DNA from: an uncultured bacterium | Lineage (GTDB): Bacteria > Patescibacteriota > Minisyncoccia > Phycocordibacterales > UBA9973 | Length of the DNA: 45,699 nt | NCBI GenBank assembly: GCA_903929735.1 | Contig: CAIYVW010000037.1 | Coordinates: 1-45,699 of the forward strand | Direction: 5' to 3' | Part shown: positions 10,093 to 45,699 of the stretch, one piece after another | Numbering within the stretch: position 1 is the first letter of the stretch | How the letters are laid out: each line of letters begins with the position of its first letter | Made by a program: the position numbers and the translations under genes | Notes under the pieces: generated by a model | The model's input: the letters and a program-made list of their open reading frames with translations, nothing else | What the model was told of the DNA's origin: nothing | Database searches by the model: none

Positions 10093-10166
10093 GCAGTCGT
10101 AGCTCAATTGGTTAGAGCACCCGCCTGTCACGTGGGAGGTTGAGGGTTCAAATCCCTTCGACTGCG
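10093..10166 (+). tRNA. tRNA-Asp(GTC); integration target
   Basis: GCAGTCG/CGACTGC acceptor, CCCGC-CTGTCAC-GTGGG anticodon arm, TTCAAAT T-loop, G73. Confidence 0.95.
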
Positions 10167-11777
10167 CAGTATTGGACAAAGCACCCCTAAACGGGTGTTT
10201 TGTTCTTTTGTAGCAAAGGTTTTTTCCAGTTCCAACCGATTTATTTCACTTTCTACAGCTTTTCGCTTTTTCTCTATTGGTTCTAGCCAATCGTTTGGTA
10301 AAATAAAGAGTTTTTGGTCTTTTACTATATAGTTCCAACCAAGTGCAGTAAATATACTTTTCTTATCTTCTATTGTAGTTTCAGGGTCTTCAAACTTGAT
10401 TTTTGCTACTTGTGCAAAGTTGAATACTTGTTCGGTGTATTGTAACCAGTTCAATGCTCGGCTTTCAGTTTCATTGATTTTCTGCTTTAAGATTGCAATT
10501 TTTTCAATCAGTTCATTTTTTCTTGAAGCATACTGCTCATCATTTATTAGATCACGCATACGCATTGTTATTAAGTTATCTAGCTCTCTTTGAGATACCT
10601 CAATATCGCCTAATTGTGTTTTATAAATTAGCTCCCTTTCTCGGACTTCATCTGAGTGTTCTTCTGCAAGTATTCTTAATGCCCAATCTCTAAACTTTTC
10701 AGAAATCGTATATTTGTCTATTTCTTCCTTTATCATATCTTCCATATTTTTCAATGGAATAAAAGCTCTTTGGGAACAATTTTCTGTTCCTTTCTTTCGG
10801 TGTGAACAATAATAAAATGTGTAATCTTTTAATTCGTTTTTAGTTTTTATCAATTTAGTTTTTGTACAAGCTGTAACAGAACTTCCACATTCGCCACATA
10901 TCATTGTGCCAGTGTATGTGAATATATGACTCTTAGCTCTAGGTTTTCCATATCTCCCTAATAATTTTTGAACCATATCAAACTCATCCATTGTAATCAT
11001 TGGTTCGTGTTTACCATTTCCAACTTCTCCATTGTAAATAAAAAGACCAGTATAAAATATATTTGTTAAGATATTATACATAGTACTTTTATTTATTTTT
11101 CCACCTCCACGATGCCGTGTCGTTCGTGTTCTCATACCCCAATCATCACTCATTATTTTTAAGAGCTTAGGAATTGTATATTCTCCAGTTAGCATCATAT
11201 TCCACGCTTTCTTAATAAGTTCAAATCGTTCAGGGTCTTTGATTATGTAATTTTCACCACGAACTTCGTGTTTAGTATTTAAGTATCCGAGAGGAGCCAA
11301 TACTGGAGCTAATCCCTTAATAATTTTTTTATCAATTCCACTCTTTACTGCTTTCGCTAAATCTTTACTAAACTGACTAGACATTCCACTCTCTACACTG
11401 ATGATAATTGCATTGTCAGACGGTAAGTATTCTTTTTCCTTGGTCTGTATTGACTGTACTTTTCCGTCAGCAAGTAATTGTTGTAATATTCCACTCTCAA
11501 GAGGATTACGGGAGAGACGATTTAGATGCCAACAAATAATTCCATTTGCTTCACCCTTTTCTATTCTACGGATCATCTCACTAAATGCGGGTCTATTATT
11601 TGGTAGTTTGGCAGACCGACTCTCAGAGAAACTATCAATAACTTCTAAATCATATCTTGTGATAGTTTTTCTATTTTCTTCGTGTTGTCTGTCTATTGAT
11701 TGCACTTGTCTATCTTCTCCTTCAGAAGATTTACGTGCATATTCAAAGTATTTAATTTTTGATGTTTGTTTTGTCAT
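10128..11777 (-). CDS. Large serine recombinase (integrase)
   Basis: YARKSSE catalytic Ser, RPAF, RLSRN, recombinase domain (APLGY, HEPMIT), Zn ribbon CGECG...YYCS, coiled coil; last 13 codons antisense to tRNA-Asp. Confidence 0.95.
   Translation of the reverse strand: MTKQTSKIKYFEYARKSSEGEDRQVQSIDRQHEENRKTITRYDLEVIDSFSESRSAKLPNNRPAFSEMIRRIEKGEANGIICWHLNRLSRNPLESGILQQLLADGKVQSIQTKEKEYLPSDNAIIISVESGMSSQFSKDLAKAVKSGIDKKIIKGLAPVLAPLGYLNTKHEVRGENYIIKDPERFELIKKAWNMMLTGEYTIPKLLKIMSDDWGMRTRTTRHRGGGKINKSTMYNILTNIFYTGLFIYNGEVGNGKHEPMITMDEFDMVQKLLGRYGKPRAKSHIFTYTGTMICGECGSSVTACTKTKLIKTKNELKDYTFYYCSHRKKGTENCSQRAFIPLKNMEDMIKEEIDKYTISEKFRDWALRILAEEHSDEVRERELIYKTQLGDIEVSQRELDNLITMRMRDLINDEQYASRKNELIEKIAILKQKINETESRALNWLQYTEQVFNFAQVAKIKFEDPETTIEDKKSIFTALGWNYIVKDQKLFILPNDWLEPIEKKRKAVESEINRLELEKTFATKEQNTRLGVLCPILRSRRDLNPQPPT
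10178..10210 (+). terminator. Element-supplied terminator-like hairpin behind tRNA-Asp
   Basis: AAAGCACCC-CTAAAC-GGGTGTTTT followed by a T-rich tract. Confidence 0.5.
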
Positions 11778-11780
11778 ATA

Positions 11781-11917
11781 CCATAAAAGGACGGTTCTGG
11801 TTGACCCAATATACTTACCAAGAGGCAGTTTTACTGGCAGAACCGCCCTTTTATGGACAGTAAGACATATAAAATGCCTCTGGCAAAAATCGTATATGGG
11901 TCAACACTTACATTATA
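11781..11917 (-). promoter_or_regulatory. Structured 5' leader of the integrase with a -10 box
   Basis: TATAAT at 11917-11912; stems 11800-11836 / 11858-11905; loop 11838-11856 complementary (18/19 plus G-U) to 11781-11799. Confidence 0.6.
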
Positions 11918-13136
11918 TACCTTTTTCCAAAGAAGTTAAGTTTATAAACTCAAAGTTTTCAAGTGCATTGTTTACGAAAGATATGCAATTTGAGTAAGGC
12001 AATCCTTGTATAAGTTCTGATGCTAATTCAATCTTTTTATTTAATCTTTCTGGGTGATTTGTATCCCATATATCAAAGATTGCTCCTCGTACTTCTTTTG
12101 CTCCGTGATCTTTTATTGCAATAGCCAGACCATAAGAGATAAGAGCTTTATTCAAGGTATGAGATTTCTCATCTAATTTTTGTGCTTCAGCTAGTATGTG
12201 CAAAAGAAGTGTTAATTTGTCAGTGATAGCAAAAAGAGACAGTTGGTTTTCTGGTCTATTGATAATAGTGTGCCAAGAATTGATAACAAGCGACTTCATT
12301 AAATTAGGAGTAAACAAATCCTTAAAAAGAAGTTGTGTCTCATATTCTCTTCCTAGAAGTGGGTTTATATATTTTCTTGCCGTTTGGTTTTTCTTTATAC
12401 GGTATTCGTATCTGAATATCTCTTTATTTTCAAGATTATGAGAAATAATAAATTGTCTTTCATAATCAATATGCTCTTTGTCGGTACGTTTATTTTTTGG
12501 TCTAAGCGAGTCAGAAACTTTGTCATAGATAGACCAATCTGTTGTTCCTGCATATATATTTAGAACTCGTGAACCTTTCTTGTTTTGTTTGTCTGATATA
12601 TCAAATACCTTGCTAATATCTATTTTGCCAAGTTCGTTTATTATTTCCCTCATTTTGATATTTTTGGGAAGTAATATGTTTTTACAAGCGTGTACGGCTA
12701 CAACTTGGGCTTTTGAGATAACTTCTGTTTCTATTGTTATTCCTACACTTTGTAATGCCGACCTAAGAGCAGAGAATACTCTTTGTTGATCTGTATTGCT
12801 TACTTCTTGAACACTATTCCAATAAAGTAATTTTGGAATAGATAGTTCAATTTTAAGAATATGTTGTATGTCTTTCCTGTCTTTTGTTAATGTTTCAAAA
12901 AGTTCAACCCGTGGCAAGTACTCTTCTTGAAACTTGGGTCTTAATACAAATCTTTTAAGATAAGGGTGTCTAGAGGTACGTTCTGTTTGAGACAACTCTT
13001 CATAAGTTCGTCTTGTTATTTCTGGTAAAAACAAAGAAAAGTTTGAAATCTTAAAAGTACGTGGGCTGTATATTTTTATAATAACTGTGTCCATAGTAAT
13101 TTTTATGTTGTCGGTGGATTTCAAGGAACCCTGCAC
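11913..13136 (-). CDS. Putative rolling-circle replication initiator (phage/plasmid gpII/X- or Rep_trans-like); probable start ATG 13094 (MDTV)
   Basis: MDTV start, ELSIPKLL.WNS..EV, IYDK and FRYEYR motifs recalled from this family; sits in the element core. Confidence 0.6.
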   Translation of the reverse strand: MQGSLKSTDNIKITMDTVIIKIYSPRTFKISNFSLFLPEITRRTYEELSQTERTSRHPYLKRFVLRPKFQEEYLPRVELFETLTKDRKDIQHILKIELSIPKLLYWNSVQEVSNTDQQRVFSALRSALQSVGITIETEVISKAQVVAVHACKNILLPKNIKMREIINELGKIDISKVFDISDKQNKKGSRVLNIYAGTTDWSIYDKVSDSLRPKNKRTDKEHIDYERQFIISHNLENKEIFRYEYRIKKNQTARKYINPLLGREYETQLLFKDLFTPNLMKSLVINSWHTIINRPENQLSLFAITDKLTLLLHILAEAQKLDEKSHTLNKALISYGLAIAIKDHGAKEVRGAIFDIWDTNHPERLNKKIELASELIQGLPYSNCISFVNNALENFEFINLTSLEKGI

Positions 13137-13141
13137 AACAT

Positions 13142-13321
13142 TTACTTTTGATTTTTCAAAAGTTCAGTATGCTGTGCATTTTTATTCGGACGATAAAGTA
13201 CAGAAATCAAACGCAAAAGTTTGATGCCTTGTTCATACGCATCTTTCTTGCTGATTTCTTCTCCAAAATGCTCTTTGTAGAGATTTTGAAACTCTATGAC
13301 TTTTTCATCTGAAAGGTTCAT
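13142..13321 (-). CDS. 59-aa small protein not in the ORF track; candidate recombination directionality factor
   Basis: Translated by hand: MNLSDEKVIEFQNLYKEHFGEEISKKDAYEQGIKLLRLISVLYRPNKNAQHTELLKNQK; fills the gap between co-oriented neighbours. Confidence 0.7.
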   Translation of the reverse strand: MNLSDEKVIEFQNLYKEHFGEEISKKDAYEQGIKLLRLISVLYRPNKNAQHTELLKNQK

Positions 13322-13325
13322 AGAG

Positions 13326-13586
13326 CTATCTGCTATACAACTTATTTTTAAGAGCTTTTAAGTGATCGAAGTACGACCTAGCTTTTACTTCTAACTTATC
13401 TGCAAAGTATTTGTTCGCTGTTTCTTCTATTCCTCTTTGCTTTCGGAATACAAAAAGAGCTTTTCTTGGATCGTTTTTCTCGACCGTTAAAAGCTCATAA
13501 TCCGCACACAGAAGTGCGGTACTGCAACCCAAATCATAAGTGGTGAACACAGATGATGGGTCGCCTATAGAAATCTTTTTACTCAT
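13326..13586 (-). CDS. DUF5659-like small protein
   Basis: TYDLGCSTALLC..ELL...KALFVF...KYF...LKALKNKLY pattern; family assignment from memory. Confidence 0.6.
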   Translation of the reverse strand: MSKKISIGDPSSVFTTYDLGCSTALLCADYELLTVEKNDPRKALFVFRKQRGIEETANKYFADKLEVKARSYFDHLKALKNKLYSR

Positions 13587-13712
13587 AGTGATTTTCTATT
13601 TTAATAGTAATATGAGAGTTTCGTGCTCTCATTTACAGGGGACGAAAAATCACAGAAGTAAAAAACCACAACAGAAATATGTTGTGGCCTCTATGCTTTG
13701 CTCTACTTTATA

Positions 13713-15239
13713 TTATTGTGAAAAATCACCGTCTATATCTTCTTCCACAGGTGCTGTCATTTCAGAAAATACTTCTTCAGAGTCAGAATACCTATTTTGT
13801 GGTTTTTCTTTTTTGTCAGCATTGTACCTTATGTTGAACTTTGCTTTATATACACCGCCTATGTCTGTTTCAAATGGGTCTGTTTCGTTTTGAAATATCT
13901 TACGTAAAATGTCCGTGATTTTTTGTTTTTGTTTCTTCTTACTTTCGCGTTCTTTTTTTGTGACAGGAAGCGTCTGACCATTACCCCTAGCTAGTTTTAA
14001 TAGAAAAGCCCAATTTTCATCAGCTTTCCCATTTCTACCATCTTCACACCCCATCCCCTCAAAAGAAGACGGTTTTGTGCTTTTGCTGTCTGATAAAAGT
14101 ATATTGGTTTCATCGAGGAATGTTATTGAAACTTTTACCCATTCCGTTCTAGGAAACTGTTGTAGAGTGACCTTTTTTCCACTGCTTTTTTTAATGATGT
14201 TTTCTTCAACATTCTTTATATTTATATTGATGTCTTTCTCTTGGATGTTATTTTCAAAACGATGGGTATGCTCGTGCTTAATTGTTTGCTCTTTGTCTTC
14301 CCCAAAAATATGATTAAAATCTTCCTTGTATTTTGGTGCTTCCTTTTTGTAAAAGTTATTAGTTCTTTGTATCTGAAGTTTATTTAGTTTCTCTATTTCA
14401 CCAGAGATTGCTTCAAGAAAGAAAGCATTTGCCACATCTGTTTTATGTATTTCTGAATTATTTTCAAATAAATCTTTATCTGCTATTTCTTCTCTTAATT
14501 CGATGATTTGTGGCACAATAAAATCTTCCCAAACACCATCAAAAAACTCAGGACAGATATACAAACTGGTTATTGGTTCAATAAGTGTCTGATATGCCTT
14601 GTTGTTCTTAATTTCCAAAAATGTATCGTCGGAATTAACAATTTTTATTAACTTATTTCTAAGTATTTTGAAATAATCATTTAATTCGTCTATTCCAGAA
14701 GTGGGAAAGTAAATACCCGAACCATAATACGCTACCAGTATTGCTTCATAGTAAGAATAATAAACTTTTACTAAGTATATTTTTTCATTAACCGATAAAT
14801 CGTCTATTTTAGACAGATTGAAGTTTTTTATAAGTTCAGCTTTTGTTTTTAATTTGTCGATACCTGATTGTTGGTTAAAATCAAAACCACTCAAGAATAA
14901 TAATTTTGAACCTATTTCATTTGCTTTTTTAATAAGTTCTTTTTCTGAAGCTGTTATTTCTTTTTCGTGTAAAATTGCGCTGTCCTCAATATATTTAGTT
15001 AGATTTGTTATTATTACACCCACTAGTGCATCCTCTTCAGCTTTCCATATTCCACGTAATCTATTTGCCTTTGATCTACTGGAAAAATCAAAATCATACT
15101 TTGTGTCATAGATGTTTATCTTGAACTCATCTTGAAAGAACTGCTCCATTGTTCGGTCACTAAAATCAAGGACATATCCACCTTGCATCCCAAACAGTTT
15201 TTCCAGTATTGCTTTGTCGGTTCCTTTAATTTGGCTCAT
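13713..15239 (-). CDS. AbiJ N-terminal-domain-like protein fused to an uncharacterised C-terminal domain
   Basis: LEKLFGMQGGYVLDFSDRT...SKANRLRGIW is the AbiJ_NTD3-type signature; no HEPN RxxxxH seen. Confidence 0.65.
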   Translation of the reverse strand: MSQIKGTDKAILEKLFGMQGGYVLDFSDRTMEQFFQDEFKINIYDTKYDFDFSSRSKANRLRGIWKAEEDALVGVIITNLTKYIEDSAILHEKEITASEKELIKKANEIGSKLLFLSGFDFNQQSGIDKLKTKAELIKNFNLSKIDDLSVNEKIYLVKVYYSYYEAILVAYYGSGIYFPTSGIDELNDYFKILRNKLIKIVNSDDTFLEIKNNKAYQTLIEPITSLYICPEFFDGVWEDFIVPQIIELREEIADKDLFENNSEIHKTDVANAFFLEAISGEIEKLNKLQIQRTNNFYKKEAPKYKEDFNHIFGEDKEQTIKHEHTHRFENNIQEKDININIKNVEENIIKKSSGKKVTLQQFPRTEWVKVSITFLDETNILLSDSKSTKPSSFEGMGCEDGRNGKADENWAFLLKLARGNGQTLPVTKKERESKKKQKQKITDILRKIFQNETDPFETDIGGVYKAKFNIRYNADKKEKPQNRYSDSEEVFSEMTAPVEEDIDGDFSQ

Positions 15240-15306
15240 AGTAATTGTAATTTATCCTTAAACAATTTGATTTTACCATATTTTACTATGAAGATTAAGC
15301 ATTTTT

Positions 15307-15454
15307 TGTTATACTGGATGTGCGCATAAGTCAGTTTTCAATCAAGGTTTATTTACCTTGGTTACCAATCGTGTTCAGCATAGGCACTCTATGTGGGATA
15401 CAGGATTGGTAACCTTTTGGCTACTGACTTGTGCGCACCCACTGGAGTGCCTAT
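15307..15454 (+). promoter_or_regulatory. Extended -10 promoter and structured 5' leader of the mod-res operon
   Basis: TGTTATACT 15307-15315; stems 15320-15335 / 15423-15438 and 15360-15370 / 15404-15414; loop 15380-15397 complementary to 15438-15454. Confidence 0.6.
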
Positions 15455-15491
15455 TTTGCGTTTCAGTGGAAGACATCTGTATTAGCGCACT

Positions 15492-17201
15492 ATGTCTCAA
15501 CAAAATAAATTACAATTACACGAAAAAGAGCTTCTTGCTCGTATTTCAGAACTTGAGTTAGAAATTAAAAAACTTAAGGATAGAAAATATGGACTTATTT
15601 GGGAAGATAAACCAGAAGAGGTTGTTTTGCAATGCAAAGCCAATATCCCTATTTTAAGAGAAGTTAAGAATAGAAAAATTGTTTCTGATAATTTAACACC
15701 AAACAATCTTTTGATTGAGGGTGACAATTATCACTCTCTTTCTGTTTTGAACTATACTCACAGGAAAAGTGTTGACCTTGTATATATTGATCCACCTTAT
15801 AACACAGGAGCTAAAAACTGGAGGTACAACAATGATTATGTTGATGGAGATGATGATTGGAGACATAGTAAATGGGTATCTTATATGAATAGAAGATTGC
15901 TCTTAGCAAAGAATGTACTAAAAGACAAAGGTGTTCTTGTCTGTGCTATTGATGAAAACGAACACGCCAATCTTGGATTACTTATACATCAGATTTTTAC
16001 GAATTACACGATTGACTGCGTTACAGTAGTTCATAATCCTAGAGGTGTTCAGGGTAAAAACTTTTCGTATAATCACGAGTATATCTATTTTGCCTATCCA
16101 AATGATGGAGGAAAATATATTCTAGATGCTGAAAGAGAAGAGACACTTGAAAGAAACTTTAGAGTTGACGGTAGTAACTCGCCAAGATCAACCTCAAAGA
16201 CAATGTTTTTCCCAATTATTATAGAAGATAAAAAGATTGTTGGTTTTGGTGATGTTGCTGATGTGAATTATCACCCAAAGCAACAAACTGAACATAGAAA
16301 GAATGGGCAGATTTACGTATGGCCAATAGATATAAACGGTATTGAAAGAAAGTGGTCTTTTTCTAGAAATAGTATAGAAGAAATTAAAGACCAGTTAATT
16401 TTCAAGAACAGAAAAGATAGATACGAAATCTATAGGCAAAAAGATGCTTCCCCCTATAGAACAGTGTGGATCAATTCTAAATATGATGCTAATGAATATG
16501 GCTCAAAATTAGTTAATTCTATTATTGATACAAACTTTCCTTTTCCCAAATCAATTTATAATGTTCTAGAGTGTGTATCAGCTACTGTTGGGAATAATAA
16601 AACTGCAACAGTTTTAGATTTTTTTGCTGGTTCAGGAACTACAGGTCACGCTGTCCTAGAACTGAATAAGCAAGATGGTGGTAATCGTAAGTTTATTCTT
16701 TGTACAAATAATGAAAATAATATATGTGAAGAAGTTACTTATGAACGTATTAAAAGAGTTATAAAAGGATATAAAAATAAGAAAGGTGAAAAAATTGAAG
16801 GTCTTGGTGGTAATTTATCATATTACAAAACCGATTTAGTGAACATAGAAAAAATACACAAGATTTCAGATGAAGAAAAAATTAAGGTTACTTATCAAGC
16901 TGGTGAAATGATAGCAGTAAGAGAAGATACCTTAAATGAAATAGAAAAAAATGAATGGTGGCAGATTTTTGAAGGAAATAATAATATCACTGCTATTTAT
17001 TTCAAAGAAGATAAAGAGAAAATTAAAGAACTGATAAAAAAACTTATTTCTAAATTTGAGAATGATAAAACTTCCGTAACTCTTTATATTTTCGGTTGGG
17101 GTAAAAATGAATACAAAAATGAATATAGTTCAGGCCTAGTTCGTGTCGAGGACATTCCTGAACCTATACTGGAAGTTTATAAAGAAATAAATCGTTTATA
17201 A
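15492..17201 (+). CDS. mod: Type III R-M methyltransferase subunit Mod (beta-class amino-MTase)
   Basis: NLLIEGDN, YIDPPYNTG, HSKWVSYM, FPFPK, LDFFAGSGTTGHAV. Confidence 0.93.
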   Translation: MSQQNKLQLHEKELLARISELELEIKKLKDRKYGLIWEDKPEEVVLQCKANIPILREVKNRKIVSDNLTPNNLLIEGDNYHSLSVLNYTHRKSVDLVYIDPPYNTGAKNWRYNNDYVDGDDDWRHSKWVSYMNRRLLLAKNVLKDKGVLVCAIDENEHANLGLLIHQIFTNYTIDCVTVVHNPRGVQGKNFSYNHEYIYFAYPNDGGKYILDAEREETLERNFRVDGSNSPRSTSKTMFFPIIIEDKKIVGFGDVADVNYHPKQQTEHRKNGQIYVWPIDINGIERKWSFSRNSIEEIKDQLIFKNRKDRYEIYRQKDASPYRTVWINSKYDANEYGSKLVNSIIDTNFPFPKSIYNVLECVSATVGNNKTATVLDFFAGSGTTGHAVLELNKQDGGNRKFILCTNNENNICEEVTYERIKRVIKGYKNKKGEKIEGLGGNLSYYKTDLVNIEKIHKISDEEKIKVTYQAGEMIAVREDTLNEIEKNEWWQIFEGNNNITAIYFKEDKEKIKELIKKLISKFENDKTSVTLYIFGWGKNEYKNEYSSGLVRVEDIPEPILEVYKEINRL

Positions 17202-17204
17202 TTT

Positions 17205-19502
17205 ATGCTTATACTTAAACCATTTCAAGAAACAGCAATATCTCAGCTTAAAGACAAGTTTTTAACTTTATGGAAACTTGGTGATACAAATGTTAATTTA
17301 ACTTTCAAATCTCCAACTGGTTCGGGAAAAACAATAATGATGGCTCAATTCTTGAGAGATATTGTTTCTGACCCACGATTTGCAAGTGCAGATGTCGGTT
17401 TTATTTGGATTACAAACTCTGACTCTCTCGCAATGCAATCAAAAGATAAACTTTTTACGTATTACGGAGGAGCTAGCGAAAATCCACTTATTGATCTGAA
17501 CAATCTACGAGATGGTGTTATTCCTAAGAACGGGGTTTTCTTTATAAACTGGCAGAAACTTGTATCAAAATCAAAAGATAATCGTAAACTTCGCACTGAG
17601 GGTGAGTCAAATACCACCTTTGATATGTATCTAGAAAATACACATATACTTAAACGTGATGTTGTATTGATTATTGATGAAGAGCATATTGCTTCCGATA
17701 CAGTTCTTGCTAGTGATTTAATTAAGAATGTTATTAAGCCAAGAATTATAATTGGTGTTTCAGCTACCCCTCAAACAAAAGGTATTACTGTAGATGTTGA
17801 CCGTAAGGATGTTGTACGAGAGGGTTTAATAAAAGAAAAAATTGTATTTCAAACAGCTGAAGATTTAGAAAATAAAGAATATAAAAATATGGATCAGGAT
17901 GATGTTCTTCTTACTTTAGCTTTTGAGAAAAGAAACGAGCTTGTTGAATACTATAAAAAACTTAAGATTGATATTAACCCACTTGTTTTAATACAACTTC
18001 CAAATGACGATAAAGCAAGAAAAGATACTGCTAATATGACCAAGCAAGATTTGGTTATAAACTTTCTTAAGTCAAAAGGAATACTCACTCACGAAATAGC
18101 CGTCTGGCTTTCAGACGATAAGGTAAATCTTGCAGACGTAGAAGCAAGTAATTCACCAGTATCATTTTTACTTTTCAAACAAGCAGTAGCTACAGGATGG
18201 GATTGTCCACGAGCAAGTATCTTGGTGATGTTCCGTGAGATTAAAAATCCTACATTTGCTATCCAAACATCAGGTCGTATTTTACGTATGCCACTTGGAG
18301 TACATTTTTCAGTACCAGAACTTAATCTCGGTTATTTATACACAAACTATAAACGAAATGAAGTACTTGTTGGTTATGCAAAATCTGCTGACCAAAATAG
18401 ACCAGCAATAAATGGAAGTTACAGGAAAACGGCTGTAGAACCAATTGTTCTTGACTCAGTGTTTATGAGCCGTACTGACTATAACGATTTAGGTGATAGC
18501 TTCCAAGAAACTTTCAAAAAGGTAGCAAATAATTATTTTGGTATTTTAGAAAAAGATACAAAAGCAAATGTTATAAAAAAGTTCAATGATAAAAAACTTT
18601 CTTTAGACAAAAAAGTTACAAATGGCCTTATTGTTGATGTTGAGATTGATGACTATGATAATTTCAAGCAGGAACTTCTTTCTGAGGGAAGTAGTTATGA
18701 GCAAGAAATGTCACAGCATGATTTAGAGAGATTATATAATCTTTTCTGTTTTAATATCATATCTAAACAAATTGATGAGGATAAAAAGTTTGCTCCAGAG
18801 CGTTCTTGGGGTAAATTAAAAACCGCCTTAAATGTGTGGCTTCTTGGTCTCCTTAAAGAACAGCGATTACAAATCTATCACATTATTGTAAATGATTTCT
18901 TAAAAGTGAACAGTGTTTTGAGTAGCGTAATTGGTAAAGCATTATCTACATACAGACCAATTCGTGAGCAAGAAATAAATCATAAATCTCAAAGATCCAA
19001 ACGAACTGAGCAAATTGAAATACCAAGACCATCCCTTTTCTATACTGACCAATATGAAGAAATGAAAGTAAAGAAAAGTGCAATGCAACCATTCTTTATA
19101 GAAAAAGATTATACAGGCAAGAAAAATGAGACAAACTTTATTAAATCATTAGAAGAAAATGATAGTGTTCTCTGGTGGTATAAAAATGGTGATTTGGGTA
19201 GTGAGTTTTTCTCTATTCCATATTATGATCCAACAACCAACAAAGAAAGTTTGTTTTATCCTGACTGGGTTATAAGAAATGAAAAAGGTGTTTACATAAT
19301 AGATACAAAAGGTGGTGATACAGCAAAGGGGGCAAAAGAACGTGCTGAAGCGCTCCAAGCGTGGATAAAAAGCAAGAAAGGTTATTATGGAGGTATCGCT
19401 GTCCAAGATGGCTCAAATGGCTGGAAAATCAACGATAGTGCTAAATACGAGTATACTACTGCTCTTAAGGGATGGAAAGATTTAGAAGATTTTTTGAATT
19501 GA
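17205..19502 (+). CDS. res: Type III R-M restriction subunit Res (SF2 helicase plus PD-(D/E)xK nuclease)
   Basis: SPTGSGKT, DEEH, SATP, GWDCPRA, QTSGRILR, FYPDW...DTKG; starts 4 nt after the mod stop. Confidence 0.92.
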   Translation: MLILKPFQETAISQLKDKFLTLWKLGDTNVNLTFKSPTGSGKTIMMAQFLRDIVSDPRFASADVGFIWITNSDSLAMQSKDKLFTYYGGASENPLIDLNNLRDGVIPKNGVFFINWQKLVSKSKDNRKLRTEGESNTTFDMYLENTHILKRDVVLIIDEEHIASDTVLASDLIKNVIKPRIIIGVSATPQTKGITVDVDRKDVVREGLIKEKIVFQTAEDLENKEYKNMDQDDVLLTLAFEKRNELVEYYKKLKIDINPLVLIQLPNDDKARKDTANMTKQDLVINFLKSKGILTHEIAVWLSDDKVNLADVEASNSPVSFLLFKQAVATGWDCPRASILVMFREIKNPTFAIQTSGRILRMPLGVHFSVPELNLGYLYTNYKRNEVLVGYAKSADQNRPAINGSYRKTAVEPIVLDSVFMSRTDYNDLGDSFQETFKKVANNYFGILEKDTKANVIKKFNDKKLSLDKKVTNGLIVDVEIDDYDNFKQELLSEGSSYEQEMSQHDLERLYNLFCFNIISKQIDEDKKFAPERSWGKLKTALNVWLLGLLKEQRLQIYHIIVNDFLKVNSVLSSVIGKALSTYRPIREQEINHKSQRSKRTEQIEIPRPSLFYTDQYEEMKVKKSAMQPFFIEKDYTGKKNETNFIKSLEENDSVLWWYKNGDLGSEFFSIPYYDPTTNKESLFYPDWVIRNEKGVYIIDTKGGDTAKGAKERAEALQAWIKSKKGYYGGIAVQDGSNGWKINDSAKYEYTTALKGWKDLEDFLN

Positions 19503-19512
19503 TTATAAAGAA

Positions 19513-20538
19513 TTATTTTTTATTCATATATTTTGTTGATATTTCGTTAGTTATCTTTCTTGCATTACCGTGACTTAAAAGTCCTAAGTATGACTGAACT
19601 GTATCTATCTTGCCCTCTTTTAGTTTAATACGTTTCCACATTCTACGTTTAGTTACTGTTCTAATTACACGATGATTTGGAAAATGTACCCATCCAAGAA
19701 AATCAATTCCAGAAACCAGTGTGTTTATAGATACTTTGTTATGGTGAAGTGATAACTTAAGCTGTTCTTTAAGAAAATTAGATATTTGAGGAAGTATGTT
19801 TTTTTCAATCCATTCTTTGTTTTCAGACATAACAATAAAATCGTCTGCGTAACGAATATAGTATTTTATTTTTAGTTTGTGTTTAATAAATTGATCAAAC
19901 TCATTCATATAGATGTTTACAAGCAATTGTGAGGTGAGATTACCAAGAGGTAATCCGACATCTTCTTTGGTTGAATGAAAACTTTTAATTATTTCTGACA
20001 AAAGTGAGGTAACGTCGTCATCTCTAATATATTTTTTAATAATTTCAATAAGGATATTCTGGTCAATGGAAGCAAAAAACTTTCTTATATCACCCTTCAA
20101 AACCCACACTGTCCTTGTATTATTCTTTGATACTTTGTTAGAGAAAGTCCTAAATCTTTGTATCGCCTTATGTGTTCCTTTATTTTTTCTACAAGAATAT
20201 GAGTCAGAAGTAAAAGTCCTATCAAAAAATGGATAGAGTACACGATAGATAGCGTGGTGAAGTAATCTGTCTCGTACTTTTGCTTTATGTATACTTCGTG
20301 GCTTTGGGTCAGAAATGTTGAAGGCGTAATAATCAGAATGCTTATATGTTTTATTTAAGAGTTCATTGTGTAGGTCTATTATATTATCCATTAAGTTTCG
20401 TTCAAAATCTAAAACATCCTTCCTTAATTTTTTGTCTATTGAAAACTCTTTCCAAGCAAATAGAAGATTATTAAGAGAAATGATATGTTTATATGTATGA
20501 ATAAATTGAATACGAATCATATTAAAAATAGTGTTCAA
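19513..20538 (-). CDS. DGR reverse transcriptase (start TTG 20538 or ATG 20520)
   Basis: PKPRSI, RDRLLHHA, SYSCRKNKGTH, GDIRKFF, GLPLGNLTSQ, YIRYADDF, GIDFLG; ~340 aa with no maturase or endonuclease domain; adjacent TR/VR pair. Confidence 0.95.
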   Translation of the reverse strand: MNTIFNMIRIQFIHTYKHIISLNNLLFAWKEFSIDKKLRKDVLDFERNLMDNIIDLHNELLNKTYKHSDYYAFNISDPKPRSIHKAKVRDRLLHHAIYRVLYPFFDRTFTSDSYSCRKNKGTHKAIQRFRTFSNKVSKNNTRTVWVLKGDIRKFFASIDQNILIEIIKKYIRDDDVTSLLSEIIKSFHSTKEDVGLPLGNLTSQLLVNIYMNEFDQFIKHKLKIKYYIRYADDFIVMSENKEWIEKNILPQISNFLKEQLKLSLHHNKVSINTLVSGIDFLGWVHFPNHRVIRTVTKRRMWKRIKLKEGKIDTVQSYLGLLSHGNARKITNEISTKYMNKK

Positions 20539-20901
20539 ACTCCAACACTTTTGCCAGTACTACATAAACTAAAAACTGTGTATCTTCTATGGTATAGCTA
20601 TTATCAGATTTTACCCAAAGAACATCGTTATTCTCTTGGAATAAAAATAGATAGCTTGTTTGTAGAAATAATGGAAGCCATCTCTTTGGCTGGATTTCTT
20701 ACTAAAGGAGAAAAACAACCTTACGTAAGATTATCAATCAGAAAGGTTGATACTTTGAAAATCTTACTGATGATTTTATGGGAGACAAAATCTATTGATA
20801 ATAAAAAGTACATTGCACTTTCTGTCCCCTTAGATGAGGTAGGAAGAATGCTTGGTGGTTGGAATGGACAGCTTACAAAACAAAACTCTCCCATCACATA
20901 G
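20485..20901 (+). CDS. avd: DGR accessory variability determinant Avd (four-helix bundle); start uncertain
   Basis: LPKEHRYSLGIKID...LDEVGRMLGGW motifs; basic protein of ~130 aa lying between RT and TR. Confidence 0.88.
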   Translation: MFICMNKLNTNHIKNSVQTPTLLPVLHKLKTVYLLWYSYYQILPKEHRYSLGIKIDSLFVEIMEAISLAGFLTKGEKQPYVRLSIRKVDTLKILLMILWETKSIDNKKYIALSVPLDEVGRMLGGWNGQLTKQNSPIT

Positions 20902-20910
20902 AAAGGAGAG
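20886..20910 (-). other. Hairpin in the TR 3' spacer, antisense to the avd stop
   Basis: Minus strand CTCTCC...GGAGAG followed by TTTTGTTTT. Confidence 0.5.
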
Positions 20911-20922
20911 AAATGAAAAGAT

Positions 20923-21048
20923 TTGCGAGAACAGCAGACGGGTTATTAGCGTTCCAATCATTCTCAAGCCAATTGTAGTTCCAGTTCCACTTACCATCGT
21001 TCCAGTACAAGTACAGGACGTAACGGTTACCGTTAGAGTTCCGAAGAA
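20923..21048 (-). repeat. DGR template repeat (TR), 126 bp
   Basis: Ungapped match to 21407-21532; rich in AAC/AAT codons; all 19 mismatches fall at minus-strand adenines. Confidence 0.97.
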
Positions 21049-21051
21049 ACA

Positions 21052-21269
21052 TATAGAGTATCATCTATTCCACCACCTCTTGAATACTCTCAAGGTTGTA
21101 TATTACTCGTGATAATAATCACTCAATACTCTATACCAAGTATCTTCATTTTTTTGAAGTTTCTGCATACATCACTCTACTTGAAACCTTAATCTCAAGT
21201 ATTCTGAATGTATGGATACTGGTTTCGGTAGCGGAAAATCGTAATCGTCCGCATATTCACCTACTACCG
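21052..21269 (-). ncRNA. Structured 5' region of the putative DGR template RNA
   Basis: Nested helices, e.g. 21052-61/21126-35 (10 bp), 21166-72/21208-14, 21178-84/21195-201, 21226-31/21264-69; extended -10 TGTTAAACT just upstream. Confidence 0.6.
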
Positions 21270-21294
21270 TATTTAGTTTAACACAAAAAAATAA

Positions 21295-21316
21295 CCCCTG
21301 TATAAAAATACAGGGG
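21295..21316 (-). terminator. Perfect hairpin after the DGR target (terminator and/or homing cruciform)
   Basis: CCCCTGTAT-TTTT-ATACAGGGG followed by TTATTTTTT on the minus strand. Confidence 0.65.
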
Positions 21317-21371
21317 CGGAGGATAAAGTACCTCCAATTTTTTTTCGCGAAATGCACAAAGGACAAAGGGT

Positions 21372-22031
21372 CTAAGAAACCAAAGTTTCAGAAACCAGAG
21401 TGCTACTTGCGAGAACAGCAGACGGGCCATCAGCGAACCAATCACGCCCAAGCCAATAGTAGTTCCAGTCCCACTCACCACCGTCCCAGCACAAGTACAG
21501 GACGTAACGGCGACCGCCAGAGTCCCGAAGAACAGTTCCATCAAAGAAAATAAAAGTTGTATTCCCGTTTGTTTTTTCTTTCCATTTTTCAGGAATGAGG
21601 ATTTGGTTTTCCCAAAGTGTTTTGAAAATACCAGCATCCAAACGAATACGATTTGTTTTTTCTTTGAGACGTTTGAGTTTGTCTTCACCTTTAATGATTT
21701 TCTCTCCTTTTTCCAAGGTTGAGTCAAACATAACCTCAGTTAGGTCAATTTCGGTGAGAGCAATTGCTCTTTCGTCTTGTTCTTCAATAGACCATCCGTC
21801 ACCAATAAAGGTTTTGGGATCAAACAGGATAGAGCGGTCAATGCTGATTACCCTTGGGCTATCAACTATAACTTTTCCACCATTTTTAAGGAATGCAGTA
21901 AATTGTTTACCTGCTTCCGTAGGGTCATCTACAATCTTTTGTAAAATTGTGTGTTCCAAGACATCCCAATTAACATTGGTTGCAAGGATTTGGATAACCG
22001 TGTGAGACTGACCAATAGATGGCTTACTCAT
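21372..22031 (-). CDS. DGR target protein with C-terminal variable region (219 aa from ATG 22031; ORF track start 22061)
   Basis: VR encodes LRDSGGRRYVLYLCWDGGEWDWNYYWLGRDWFADGPSAVLA; SD AAGGAGGT 5 nt before ATG 22031. Confidence 0.92.
   Translation of the reverse strand: MSKPSIGQSHTVIQILATNVNWDVLEHTILQKIVDDPTEAGKQFTAFLKNGGKVIVDSPRVISIDRSILFDPKTFIGDGWSIEEQDERAIALTEIDLTEVMFDSTLEKGEKIIKGEDKLKRLKEKTNRIRLDAGIFKTLWENQILIPEKWKEKTNGNTTFIFFDGTVLRDSGGRRYVLYLCWDGGEWDWNYYWLGRDWFADGPSAVLASSTLVSETLVS
21407..21532 (-). repeat. DGR variable repeat (VR)
   Basis: 107/126 identical to TR; minus-strand changes A>G x14, A>T x3, A>C x2. Confidence 0.97.
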
Positions 22032-22075
22032 AATTACCTCCTTTTTTAATAAGAACAACATCGTTCTTGGTTTAT

Positions 22076-22105
22076 ATTATAGCATAATATAACACATTAT
22101 GTCAA
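22076..22105 (-). promoter_or_regulatory. Consensus sigma70 promoter of the DGR target
   Basis: TTGACA (22105-22100), 18-nt spacer containing TGn, TATAAT (22081-22076). Confidence 0.75.
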
Positions 22106-22206
22106 TATGACTAGTTTTTCTGATTTTTCCTTTAGATTTGGTATATAAATATAACCGTTATGTTCCCTTACCCTAGTTCCCACTTCGTCCACTAAATCGC
22201 GCAAAT

Positions 22207-22230
22207 AAAAAGAGGCTTATGCCTCTTTTT
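22207..22230 (+). terminator. Intrinsic terminator, probably the displaced original tRNA-Asp terminator
   Basis: AAAAAGAGGC-TTAT-GCCTCTTTTT directly after the right GCGCA core. Confidence 0.75.
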
Positions 22231-22311
22231 GCTTATTTGACTTAAAGCTAGATTAATAGTAATTTAAGTTTAAATAAACAGTTCTAGTATTAACTTTAAA
22301 TTCTTTGAAAA

Positions 22312-23625
22312 ATGGAAAAGAAACAGTTATTTCTAATAGACACAAATGTCTTTCTTCACGACCACGGATCTGTCCGAAGGTTTGGGAAAAATGACATAGG
22401 AATTCCAATTCAAGTTATAATTGAATTGGATAACTTCAAAAAAGGAAAGGAGCCAATTAATTATTGTGCCAGAGATGTCTTACGTGAGATAGAATCTTTA
22501 CCTAGTAAGCAAATTTATGATGGAGGTGCTTCTCTCGGGGAGAATCTTGGTAAACTTAGAATTATTGTTGGACATCCTTACCACAGCGAAGTTAAGAAAA
22601 TTTTTCCAGAACAAACTATGGATCATTTGATATTAAACGCTGCATACTGCTTGAATCATTCCAAAAAAGTTAAGGAATCAAACACTGAAGTGATCTTAGT
22701 ATCAAAAGATGTGAATCTACGATTAAAAGCAGGGGCTCTTGGATTAATGGCGGAAGATTATCAAAATGATAAAGTTCTTGATGTACCATCCTTATTCGGA
22801 GAAATAAGAAAATTCGAAATAGAGGAAGAGGAAATTACAGAGCTATACACGAAAAAACATATTGAATTCAAAGCCAGAGAAGCATTCTTTCAGAATGAAT
22901 TTATGATATTAAATGCTTCCAAAAGAACAGCCTTATCTTGCTTTAAGAATGATGTTTTTACTTTAATCAAAGATGACCTACGCCCTTTTGGAATTAAAGC
23001 TAGAAATTCCGAACAGTCATTTGCCCTTCATGCACTACTTGATCCAAAGATTTCATTAGTAACAATGACTGGTAAAGCTGGAACAGGAAAAACTCTTTTA
23101 GCTATTGCTGCAGGTTTGCATTTAATGAAAAATAACCAATACGAGCAAATATACTTTACGAGAGAAGCTATGGGGCTTTCAAATAAAGATATTGGTTTTC
23201 TTCCTGGGGGTATAAATGATAAATTATCTCCCTATATGCAAGGACTGCAAGATAATATATCTTTACTTAAAAGTATCAAGGGTAACAAAAAGATCATTGA
23301 AGATTATGAAAAAAGTGGAGAGTTAAAGCTTGAAGCTTTAACTTTCATAAGGGGTAGAAGTATCCCTAATACTTTCTTTATTATCGATGAAGCACAAAAC
23401 CTGACACATCAAGAAGTTAAAACTATTCTTACCAGAGCAGGAGTAGGAACTAAGATAATATTAATCGGAGATGTCATGCAGATAGATACTCCTTTTATTG
23501 ATTTATCATCTAACGGATTGAGTCACGTCATCTCGTCTATGAGAGGTCAGAGTGTTTACTCACAAATAAACTTAGTAAAAGGCGAACGTTCTGAATTAGC
23601 AGAACTTGCTGCTAACTTACTTTAA
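22312..23625 (+). CDS. PhoH family protein with N-terminal PIN domain (PhoH2)
   Basis: LIDTNVFLHD, VSKDVNLRLKA, GKAGTGKT, IRGRS, IDEAQN, GDVMQID, ERSELA. Confidence 0.93.
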   Translation: MEKKQLFLIDTNVFLHDHGSVRRFGKNDIGIPIQVIIELDNFKKGKEPINYCARDVLREIESLPSKQIYDGGASLGENLGKLRIIVGHPYHSEVKKIFPEQTMDHLILNAAYCLNHSKKVKESNTEVILVSKDVNLRLKAGALGLMAEDYQNDKVLDVPSLFGEIRKFEIEEEEITELYTKKHIEFKAREAFFQNEFMILNASKRTALSCFKNDVFTLIKDDLRPFGIKARNSEQSFALHALLDPKISLVTMTGKAGTGKTLLAIAAGLHLMKNNQYEQIYFTREAMGLSNKDIGFLPGGINDKLSPYMQGLQDNISLLKSIKGNKKIIEDYEKSGELKLEALTFIRGRSIPNTFFIIDEAQNLTHQEVKTILTRAGVGTKIILIGDVMQIDTPFIDLSSNGLSHVISSMRGQSVYSQINLVKGERSELAELAANLL

Positions 23626-45183: not shown

Positions 45184-45199
45184 TTAATTAATAATAATG

Positions 45200-45286
45200 C
45201 GGAACCAGCGAGATTCGAACTCGCGAGGGCTTTTACACCCTGCCTCTTTAGCAAAGAGGTACGTTAGACCACTCTGACACGGTTCC
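45200..45286 (-). tRNA. tRNA-Ser(GCT)
   Basis: GGAACCG/TGGTTCC acceptor, CCTCT-TTGCTAA-AGAGG anticodon arm, long variable arm, G73. Confidence 0.93.
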
Positions 45287-45512: not shown

Positions 45513-45599
45513 GGAGGCGTGGATGAGTGGTTTAAATCAACAGTTTACTAAACTGTCGAACCTTTACCGGTTCCGTGAGTTCGAATCTCACCGCCTCCG
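45513..45599 (+). tRNA. tRNA-Ser(ACT), rare A34 anticodon
   Basis: GGAGGCG/CGCCTCC acceptor, ACAGT-TTACTAA-ACTGT anticodon arm, long variable arm, TTCGAAT T-loop, G73. Confidence 0.88.
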
Positions 45600-45699
45600 C
45601 ATAACAAGATTTTTATCGCACAAAAGGTCAAATTCCTTTTGTTTATCAATAGTTTTCAGAGGTTCTAACCGTTTACTAATTGCGTTTACCTCTTTTGAA

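Follow-up and report, generated by a model that had tools for sequence, protein, structure and literature searches.

How a single enzyme integrates DNA unaided and yet excises it on command is the central question about serine integrases, which are among the main tools for the insertion of large DNA. The question is raised anew by a stretch of 45,699 nucleotides (nt) from an uncultured bacterium of the Patescibacteriota (GenBank assembly GCA_903929735.1, contig CAIYVW010000037.1; hereafter, the window). In the window, the open reading frame (ORF) of a large serine recombinase (LSR) runs out of an integrated island of 12,035 bp and into the tRNA-Asp gene behind which the island is inserted. Does integration rewrite the end of the integrase gene, and does the rewritten end matter to the enzyme? 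If the state of the DNA decided which form of the integrase is made, a direction bias would be built in, with no additional factor. The host genome is of the Patescibacteria type, 0.76 Mb in size, and has a single tRNA-Asp gene.

Insertion of the island exchanges the end of the integrase gene

The integrated integrase gene encodes 549 amino acids (aa) and ends in ...CPILR-SRRDLNPQPPT* (coordinates of all features are given in Table 1). Codons 1-538 are element DNA, and the final 11 codons together with the TGA stop are the antisense of the acceptor stem, T arm, and anticodon stem of tRNA-Asp. The island lies between two GCGCA cores, and its extent can equivalently be given as 10164-22198; long direct repeats were not found at its ends. 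Read from 22198 on the minus strand, the frame continues after ...CGC as DLVDEVGTRVREHNGYIYIPNLKEKSEKLVILT*, with the stop at 22099-22097, and joining the cores gives 538 + 33 = 571 aa in one frame. The juxtaposed halves of the attachment (att) site read CTTCGTCCA-N16-TGGACAAAG, complementary at 8 of 9 positions, with the first GC of the core at the centre. By itself, the open 33-codon frame is weak evidence for the junction (the chance of a stop-free frame of this length at the local base composition is 0.083).

The junction is confirmed by the agreement between relatives with empty sites and contig break points. In the genus, a tRNA-cluster search found the tRNA-Asp gene in 86 of 93 genomes. 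In the empty sites of G015, which is the closest relative (90% identity across the tRNA cluster), and of G017, the tRNA-Asp end ...CGACTGCGCA directly joins AAAT(G/A)AAAAA, as the window does from 22199. The PIN-PhoH gene follows tRNA-Asp in both genomes, and in G017 a terminator is present behind the tRNA gene. Among the best 30 tRNA-cluster loci, tRNA-Asp was present in 28, and behind it in 27 of these lie GCGCA, a tract rich in A, and a hairpin of the terminator type; an integrase was found there in the window only. In the sequencing run X1, which probably represents the source sample, Logan contig pieces start exactly at 22199 and at 10139 (10169 minus 30), the start points that 31-mer graph paths branching at both core edges would give. 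The X1 depth contrast between flank and island (21-27, 5-8, and 9-10) was not used, as such depths are not comparable.

A sequence-only reading of the window had proposed that attP lies inside the integrase ORF and that the C-terminus is swapped on integration, the last 11 residues being read from the antisense strand of tRNA-Asp, an in-frame tail of 33 aa (22198-22097) being regained when the cores are joined, and the joined site carrying an inverted repeat around the GC of the core. The ORF translation, the ARAGORN call, the empty sites, and a related locus with the joined form (L181, below) bear out this proposal in each of its parts. The anatomy of the split integrase gene is regarded as practically certain.

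The split layout in relatives

A homologue search gave 2,254 protein matches, and the ends of the best 120 were classed by regular expression. Peptides read from the antisense of a tRNA T loop (xRxD[LS]N[PR]...) ended 79 of these proteins, 16 had tails of the type ...LR-xLVDEVGT..., 21 stopped one residue past ...LR, and 4 ended otherwise. In a sample separate from these 21 proteins, 8 loci of the immediate-stop kind were inspected at the DNA level, and the stop was in the antisense acceptor stem of a tRNA.

Loci were classed with ARAGORN and tblastn in two independent samples of 80 loci each (genome_contigs and metagenome_contigs). In the genome contigs, 4 loci were cut by contig ends, 53 integrase ORFs stopped in an antisense tRNA gene, 12 had a T-loop-antisense end without a tRNA call, 6 had a VDEVRT-type tail and no tRNA, and 5 were of another kind, 3 of which were tRNA junctions by eye. 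The corresponding numbers for the metagenome contigs were 20, 44, 9, 4, and 3; two of the last group adjoin the 3' half of tRNA-Asp, and one is a degenerate tail. Over both samples, 97 of the 136 assessable ORFs stop in an antisense tRNA gene and 10 keep the conserved tail, LVDEVG/RT, often followed by YIYIPNL. The tRNA was tRNA-Asp in 60 of the 97 cases, and the remaining targets were tRNAs for His, Gln, Ser, Asn, Trp, Lys, Arg, Met, Val, and Glu; no claim is made for Ile (L145) or Tyr. Counted as tRNA species, the family has at least 13 targets, always at the conserved 3' end. The tRNA-derived ends are 1 to ~60 residues long.

The family accounts for all 160 loci kept in the scans, and at E ≤ 1e-30 its profile is matched by 3,209 library proteins. 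By title, nearly all sampled records are metagenome-assembled genomes of Patescibacteria, and viral contigs yielded a single relative, which ends in tRNA-His. Judged from these gene ends, the split layout is common to a large family of elements in bacteria with tiny genomes. At two loci, L182 (near 7801) and L187 (near 3758), the integrase meets only the 3' half of tRNA-Asp; similarity ends at the anticodon loop, and unrelated sequence follows.

The integrase protein

The protein matches the Pfam families Resolvase (PF00239, E 1.3e-15, residues 12-155), Recombinase (PF07508, 2.3e-07), and Zn_ribbon_recom (PF13408, 3e-09). Across 136-137 homologues, R15 and S17 are conserved in at least 90%, and R62, R87, and R90, as well as the zinc-ribbon cysteines C294, C297, C324, and C334, are invariant. 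AlphaFold2 (AF2) models were examined for the window protein (mean predicted local distance difference test score, pLDDT, 83.1) and for P0036, a 67%-identical, tail-bearing relative (mean pLDDT 89.6). Both models have the full layout of an LSR, including a two-helix coiled coil (360-407 / 413-463). In the window protein, residues 519-531 and 537-549 score below 50, and no helix is predicted past 533.

The top Foldseek and VIA matches were the SPbeta, PhiC31, Bxb1, and Listeria integrases (Foldseek E 5e-19). VIA gave Z 18.7 to the SPbeta integrase 9dxh_A (root-mean-square deviation 17.9, 462 residues aligned), 15.5 to Bxb1, and 14.6 to PhiC31. The element's chemistry is that of an ordinary serine integrase, and it is not a member of the tyrosine recombinase family of the phage Mx8 (see below). 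Among the matches listed, solved LSRs align up to model residues 496-507 only, and the last ~60 residues are an extension without a counterpart in these alignments.

In the integrase core, the ratio of nonsynonymous to synonymous substitution rates (dN/dS) is 0.04-0.10 at dS 1.3-2.1, and 30 of the 35 differences listed against a ~96%-identical copy (X5/X6) are at third codon positions; integrated copies appear to be under strong purifying selection. Further serine-recombinase paralogues, 33-35% identical, were noticed in the same small genome (G000:C49, L015; G000:C25, L014). In one of these the ORF ends within tRNA-Asn, in another it ends 17 nt before tRNA-Lys is reached, and two more paralogues are on C47.

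The linker before the crossover

In the window, the codons that precede the crossover coincide with the P' arm of attP and, on the other strand, with a terminator-like hairpin (Table 1). A gapless alignment (A3) was made of 46 distinct attL junctions of the tRNA-Asp type. On the tRNA-sense strand, it reads GCGCA, N5, GGAC, a stem of 8 bp closed by a loop of the GAAA type, and finally a U-run; G11 is conserved in at least 90% of the junctions, and G12 and A13 are invariant. The stem is paired in 87.2% of 368 cells. Changes on both sides of a pair occur in 110 cells, compared with 46.3 ± 5.5 after shuffling (0 of 500 shuffles reach 110) and 22-36 with slid partners, and double changes are found in 6 of the 8 stem pairs. 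The fold of the tRNA with its flank has z = -4.6.

Once the island is inserted, the hairpin lies 12 nt behind tRNA-Asp. In the simplest reading, it replaces the terminator of the tRNA operon, which was displaced 12 kb, and is predicted to terminate transcription there; it would also shield the island from antisense read-through. The overlap of the ORF with the att site would then arise because the arm and the terminator must occupy the extreme end of the island, and the ORF crosses them by means of a freely varying linker; this simpler reason was missed in the sequence-only reading.

At the protein level, the hairpin is read as NTPFGV, KEAFAS, or KDAFAS, and these alternatives are compensatory changes of the stem. 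Codons 516-538 have dS 0.06-0.34, compared with 1.3-2.1 in the core, dN/dS 0.3-2.0, and the lowest pLDDT in the protein. On these substitution rates, the 23 codons before the crossover are demonstrably a protein linker with no apparent amino-acid constraint. One stretch of 70 bp appears to have three uses, as a protein linker, a recombination arm, and an antisense terminator, and is a clean example of overlapping codes, in which an apparent amino-acid 'conservation' (NTPFGV / KEAFAS) can merely mirror the covariation of an RNA hairpin.

Such a linker is what would be expected if the overlap were neutral, that is, if the tail were dispensable, both isoforms recombined alike, and direction were set by a separate recombination directionality factor (RDF), perhaps the DUF5659 protein of the island. 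That the tRNA-derived ends vary so widely in length speaks for an enzyme that tolerates almost any end, and the reach of the structural alignments for a catalytic and DNA-binding machinery that is complete without the tail. The DUF5659 protein is kept beside the integrase in five relatives (44-84% identical in L162, L163, L181, L192, and L239); in L181 it is 73% identical to its window counterpart and the integrase 51%, i.e., DUF5659 is the better conserved, and it is a candidate regulator or directionality factor. Set against this reading are the properties of the tail given below, and with these included it is considered unlikely.

Distribution and constraint of the tail

The 33-residue tail peptide was found in 15 of the 92 other genomes of the genus. 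None of the 19 tail copies read adjoins a tRNA gene, 13 keep TGCGC directly before the first tail codon, and most sit behind a terminator hairpin, which is the attR configuration; all were read in the canonical orientation. Tails without an integrase lie behind tRNA-Asp at L067-L071 and L073, and tandem tails at L066, L072, and L074. Integrase-less and tandem tails are decayed or stacked islands. Two to three successive remnants, each behind its own terminator-plus-GCGCA, were seen at the tRNA-Asp site of other genomes in the genus, at L066 6179-7298, L072 1048-1271, and L074 408-6691.

These remnants and the lack of a circular junction among the contig joints listed would fit a one-way lock, in which tail loss inactivates the integrase, insertion is irreversible, and the island spreads vertically or decays in place. 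Against it, the strong purifying selection on the integrase cores of independently integrated copies is difficult to reconcile with a gene that insertion had killed; ~96%-identical copies of the island occur in runs labelled lake, soil/biofilm, and wastewater; and, among the attR tails scored, the window copy and 18 of the 20 others still have an open frame. A lock of this kind is therefore held to be very unlikely.

Contiguous genes with integrase and tail were found at L081 (in a genome flagged as unpublished), L093, L181, L207, L219, and L239, as well as at L120 and L122-L124 in Chitinophagales/Ilyomonas. At L181, the contiguous gene is followed by Res, methyltransferase, and DUF5659 genes in the circular order of the window island, and it is the sole contiguous gene interpretable as a related island in its joined (attP) form. 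L093, considered as a possible free form, is on a contig of 90 kb in a 3.5-Mb genome, and the cargo known from the window is absent from it. Other long contigs with tail-bearing genes are of 72 kb, 180 kb, and 5.8 Mb (the L124 chromosome). Terminal overlap, the sign of a circular contig, was absent from the 13 contigs tested, including L181 and L239. That the gene stays whole in some hosts is an argument for a tail that belonged to the protein from the outset.

Distant conservation was examined in 150 representatives of 50%-identity clusters. The motif [LIV][VI][DEN][ED]V[RG]T occurs in representatives 30-47% identical to the window integrase, in the position at which sister sequences change over to peptides read from tRNA antisense. 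In ~11 representatives, by eye, there is a second motif, [YF]IP[DN]L, at a distance of 10-15 residues; L239, which belongs to a subfamily aimed at other tRNAs, is one of them. The homologues in Chitinophagales and Ilyomonas have an LDEVGT motif in an unsplit gene. The comparison of C-termini for a conserved xxDEVxT tail, which the sequence-only reading had suggested, hence came out in its favour. In the AF2 model of P0036, the tail is a predicted helix (534-566, pLDDT 82-92) behind a low-confidence loop.

The first 8 tail codons correspond to the expected 25-bp P arm, in which GTG GAC GAA GT is strongly conserved. Of the correctly aligned tails listed, 21 in number, 17 have (G/A)GA AC(T/C) as codons 7-8, and the 4 exceptions are decayed remnants. 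The dN/dS is 0.28 in codons 1-8 (75 pairs) and 0.32 in codons 9-22 (45 pairs; mean dN 0.30, dS 0.95). Third codon positions vary most, including those of proline, isoleucine, and tyrosine codons.

The near-invariant codons 7-8 and the conserved start of the arm, the promoter at the tail end, and the chance of an open frame given above could be accommodated if tail conservation were purely a DNA effect, caused by the P arm and the promoter of the next gene, with the frame open by chance. In codons 9-22, between arm and promoter, synonymous change is three times the nonsynonymous, and the third-position variation in proline, isoleucine, and tyrosine codons goes in the same direction; the motif is kept as protein in relatives 30-47% identical, and LDEVGT is present in genes that are not split at all. 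This alternative is scarcely credible. The same conservation of the motif, in subfamilies targeting other tRNAs as well, and the dN/dS of ~0.3 beyond the expected arm with a confidently predicted helix count against a dispensable tail.

A further point against dispensability is an enrichment of C-terminal -AA, found in 15 of 270 relatives (0.8 expected). All 15 are tail forms (P0011, P0119, P0162, P0173, P0190, P0201, P0208, P0219, P0226-P0228, P0252, P0255, P0259, and P0260), and no tRNA-fused form has this end.

Symmetry and polarity of the att site

The first GC of the core is tRNA nt 71-72. Around it, GTCC at -12..-9 and GGAC at +9..+12 were present in 5 of 5 attP sites examined, of which those of the window and L066 were obtained by juxtaposition and those of L081, L093, and L181 are contiguous. 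Exact mirroring of GGACGAAG was seen in many elements. Within the identity GCGCA, the GC at the symmetry centre is palindromic, and the sole non-palindromic dinucleotide is CA, 3 bp off centre. In Bxb1 and PhiC31, a non-palindromic central dinucleotide sets the polarity, and a palindromic crossover allows both orientations.

No true junction in the inverted orientation was found in 93 genomes. Five pattern matches to inverted insertions were rejected, all being canonical attL sites that were matched through the symmetry of the site itself. Behind the native terminator of the G017 empty site (L005 345-700), there are three inverted fragments that resemble the 3' end of tRNA-Asp in antisense (...GAAGGGACTTGAA...), and each of them has a CAAGTCCC box as its partner ~70 nt further on.

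Two isoforms and the direction of recombination

The integrated and the joined state of the DNA evidently encode two predicted proteins that differ beyond residue 538. The sequence-only reading had proposed two isoforms, one per state, that could act as a directionality or stability switch; both are indeed encoded, with L181 as the joined form in nature. The LSR inserted the 12,035-bp island at the 3' end of tRNA-Asp, using an attP within the 3' end of its own gene; the P' arm is codons ~531-538, the crossover falls in the region of codon 538, and the following 8 codons are the P arm. Integration cuts the ORF past codon 538, leaving a protein that ends in 11 tRNA-antisense residues predicted to be disordered, and the circle regains the 33-residue tail, the equivalent of which in P0036 is predicted to be a helix. 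As the integrated island encodes only the tail-less form, that form must carry out excision; as a newly arrived circle encodes only the tailed form, the tailed form must carry out integration.

Taken as a whole, this is the best explanation of the locus and probably the right one. Its functional part is put at slightly less than an even chance: the tail may change the activity or lifetime of the enzyme, so that the circle would tend to integrate and the inserted island to stay quiescent or stable, by analogy with the IntP and IntX forms of Mx8. Indirect support comes from the contrast between the confidently predicted tail helix and the disordered tRNA-derived end, from the dN/dS of the tail (~0.3), and from the confinement of -AA ends to tail forms. 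In some relatives, the effect could be exerted through the C-terminal -AA as a degradation signal, marking the free-form enzyme for turnover. Such a degradation tag may apply to part of the family, not to the window element.

Several observations weigh against this explanation. The palindromic GC centre and the strict polarity are in conflict with the polarity rule, for which either off-centre cleavage, at CA, or selection against the orientation in which the tRNA has no terminator would have to account. The circular joint 22198-10169 is absent among the joints listed for assembled Logan contigs of four runs, which is no evidence either way. A tailed gene is not proof of a free circle, and in the hosts with long contigs the gene may never split. 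Tail constraint acts in part at the DNA level; the last tail codons overlap a promoter, and in relatives conservation continues beyond the stop. The dN/dS of the tail (~0.3) is far weaker than that of the core, many of the tails analysed are remnants without an integrase, and 2 of 21 contain stops. The window tail itself ends in ...LVILT, with no -AA end, i.e., no ssrA-like tag.

In a stronger version of the two-isoform explanation, the clade would set direction by rewriting its own gene. The C-terminal helix would be needed for attP x attB recombination, or restrict the enzyme to it, the tail-less enzyme would run attL x attR only or preferentially, and there would be no separate directionality factor. 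Crossover would take place at the palindromic GC, and polarity would result from selection for the orientation with a terminator behind the tRNA. This version is judged decidedly unlikely.

Comparison with known systems

The phage Mx8 of Myxococcus xanthus is the closest precedent for the layout, with attP inside int and a 3' end that is changed on integration, as in the window. The Mx8 papers of 1996 and 1999 reportedly give a tRNA-Asp gene as the target and describe a prophage form (intX) with altered activity. Mx8 differs in using a tyrosine recombinase and a long shared core, compared with a serine enzyme and a 5-bp identity in the window. Unlike in Mx8, the window layout is common to a whole clade that targets many different tRNAs, and an antisense terminator is encoded in the 3' end of the integrase gene as well. 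According to a review, the Mx8 attP is within the integrase coding sequence, and integration makes a recombinant gene with a new 3' end (PMC6070905).

The next closest case is the integration-dependent immunity of mycobacteriophage BPs and its relatives, which have an attP inside a gene, a prophage product 33 residues shorter, and ssrA-like tags. The likeness to the window family lies in the relatives ending in -AA, all of them tail forms. The split gene in BPs is the repressor and its integrase a tyrosine recombinase, whereas in the window the integrase itself is split and its tail lacks -AA.

With the integrases of PhiC31, Bxb1, SPbeta, and Listeria A118/LI, the window protein shares the domain order, the catalytic residues, a zinc ribbon with a coiled-coil insert, short att sites, and a quasi-symmetric attP. 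Canonical LSRs have an attP outside the integrase ORF, a separate RDF, mostly protein-gene targets, and a non-palindromic central dinucleotide. The window, in contrast, has an ORF that spans attP, a C-terminal extension of ~60 residues, tRNA 3'-end targets, and GC as the symmetry centre.

Insertion at a tRNA 3' end, an intact tRNA, and tandem or decayed arrays at one tRNA are also found in islands with tyrosine integrases. Those islands restore the tRNA 3' end by a duplicated segment of tens of bp, whereas the window island duplicates only 5 bp and supplies a new terminator. In Sulfolobus elements of the SSV1 type, attP is inside int, and integration into a tRNA gene partitions int. SSV1 differs in that the enzyme is of the tyrosine family, the element is an archaeal virus, and the gene is split into two large parts instead of losing a short tail.

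A literature search found neither a serine integrase with an ORF spanning attP nor an account of this Patescibacteria integrase family. The main text of Durrant et al. (PMC10083194) contains 'tRNA' 0 times; the supplementary LSR/att tables of the same paper (thousands of pairs) could hold cases. New here are the self-splitting serine-integrase gene with tRNA targets and an antisense terminator, and the second code of the linker.

Cargo of the island and neighbouring genes

The cargo includes a restriction-modification system of type III, a diversity-generating retroelement (DGR), and genes without a family match (Table 1). The template repeat (TR) and variable repeat (VR) of the DGR differ at 19 positions, and 19 of 19 differences are at a + strand T, which is a template (coding-strand) A; the DGR is active-looking. 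The integrase family appears to be one of the main carriers of defence islands (restriction-modification, DGR) among Patescibacteria. The GC content of the island is 0.30-0.40, with no contrast to the flanks. No phage signs were found in the island, where PHROGs gave 'integrase' and Avd only.

Table 1 Features of the integrated island and its surroundings in the window
Feature	Position	Strand	Basis or remark
tRNA-Asp (GTC), B arm of former attB	10093..10167	+	ARAGORN; nt 71-72 and discriminator inside core
Large serine recombinase, integrated form, 549 aa	10128..11777	-	Pfam, AF2
Left GCGCA, attL core	10164..10168	.	+ strand; attP symmetry centre on G10164-C10165
Integrated island, 12,035 bp	10169..22203	.	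Empty sites
P' arm of attP (GTATT-GGAC-AAAG...)	10169..10190	.	Integrase codons ~531-538; alignment A3
Terminator-like hairpin and U-run	10180..10211	+	Stem 10180-10187 / 10192-10199; antisense within integrase codons ~523-533
ORF, 407 aa, no family match	11913-13136	-	
DUF5659 protein, 86 aa	13326-13586	-	Pfam
ORF, 508 aa, no family match	13713-15239	-	
Type III methyltransferase	15492-17201	+	Pfam; PADLOC MTase_III 1.5e-73
Res helicase/endonuclease	17205-19502	+	Pfam; PADLOC REase_III 2.2e-16
DGR reverse transcriptase	19513-20538	-	
DGR Avd	20485-20901	+	
DGR TR and VR, 126 nt	TR 20923-21048; VR 21407-21532		VR inside target gene
DGR target gene, 229 aa, no family match	21372-22061	-	VR at 3' end
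Promoter-like site TTGACA-18-TATAAT	22076..22105	-	12/12 match, with TG; -35 overlaps last tail codons; faces DGR target gene
Stranded 33-codon integrase tail and stop	22097..22198	-	In frame with codon 538; first 8 codons are P arm of attP
Right GCGCA, attR core	22199..22203	.	+ strand; X1 contig piece starts at 22199
Original intrinsic terminator of tRNA operon, B' arm of attB	22206..22231	+	Displaced 12 kb by insertion
Host PIN-PhoH gene, right flank	22312..23625	+	Pfam; downstream of tRNA-Asp in G015 and G017

In the X5/X6 island, the window segment 13632-15490, which holds the 508-aa ORF, is replaced, and two tail copies are at the far end. X5 (soil) and X6 (biofilm) share one contig of 13,664 bp, present at equal depth in both, and are probably one data set filed twice. 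At L120 and L122 (Chitinophagales), the unsplit integrase is followed by a P-loop gene that is, by eye, of the conjugative coupling-protein kind, which suggests integrative conjugative elements. Towards the end of the window, ARAGORN called a tRNA-Ser with the unusual anticodon ACT (45513-45600), facing tRNA-Ser(GCT) at 45199-45286.

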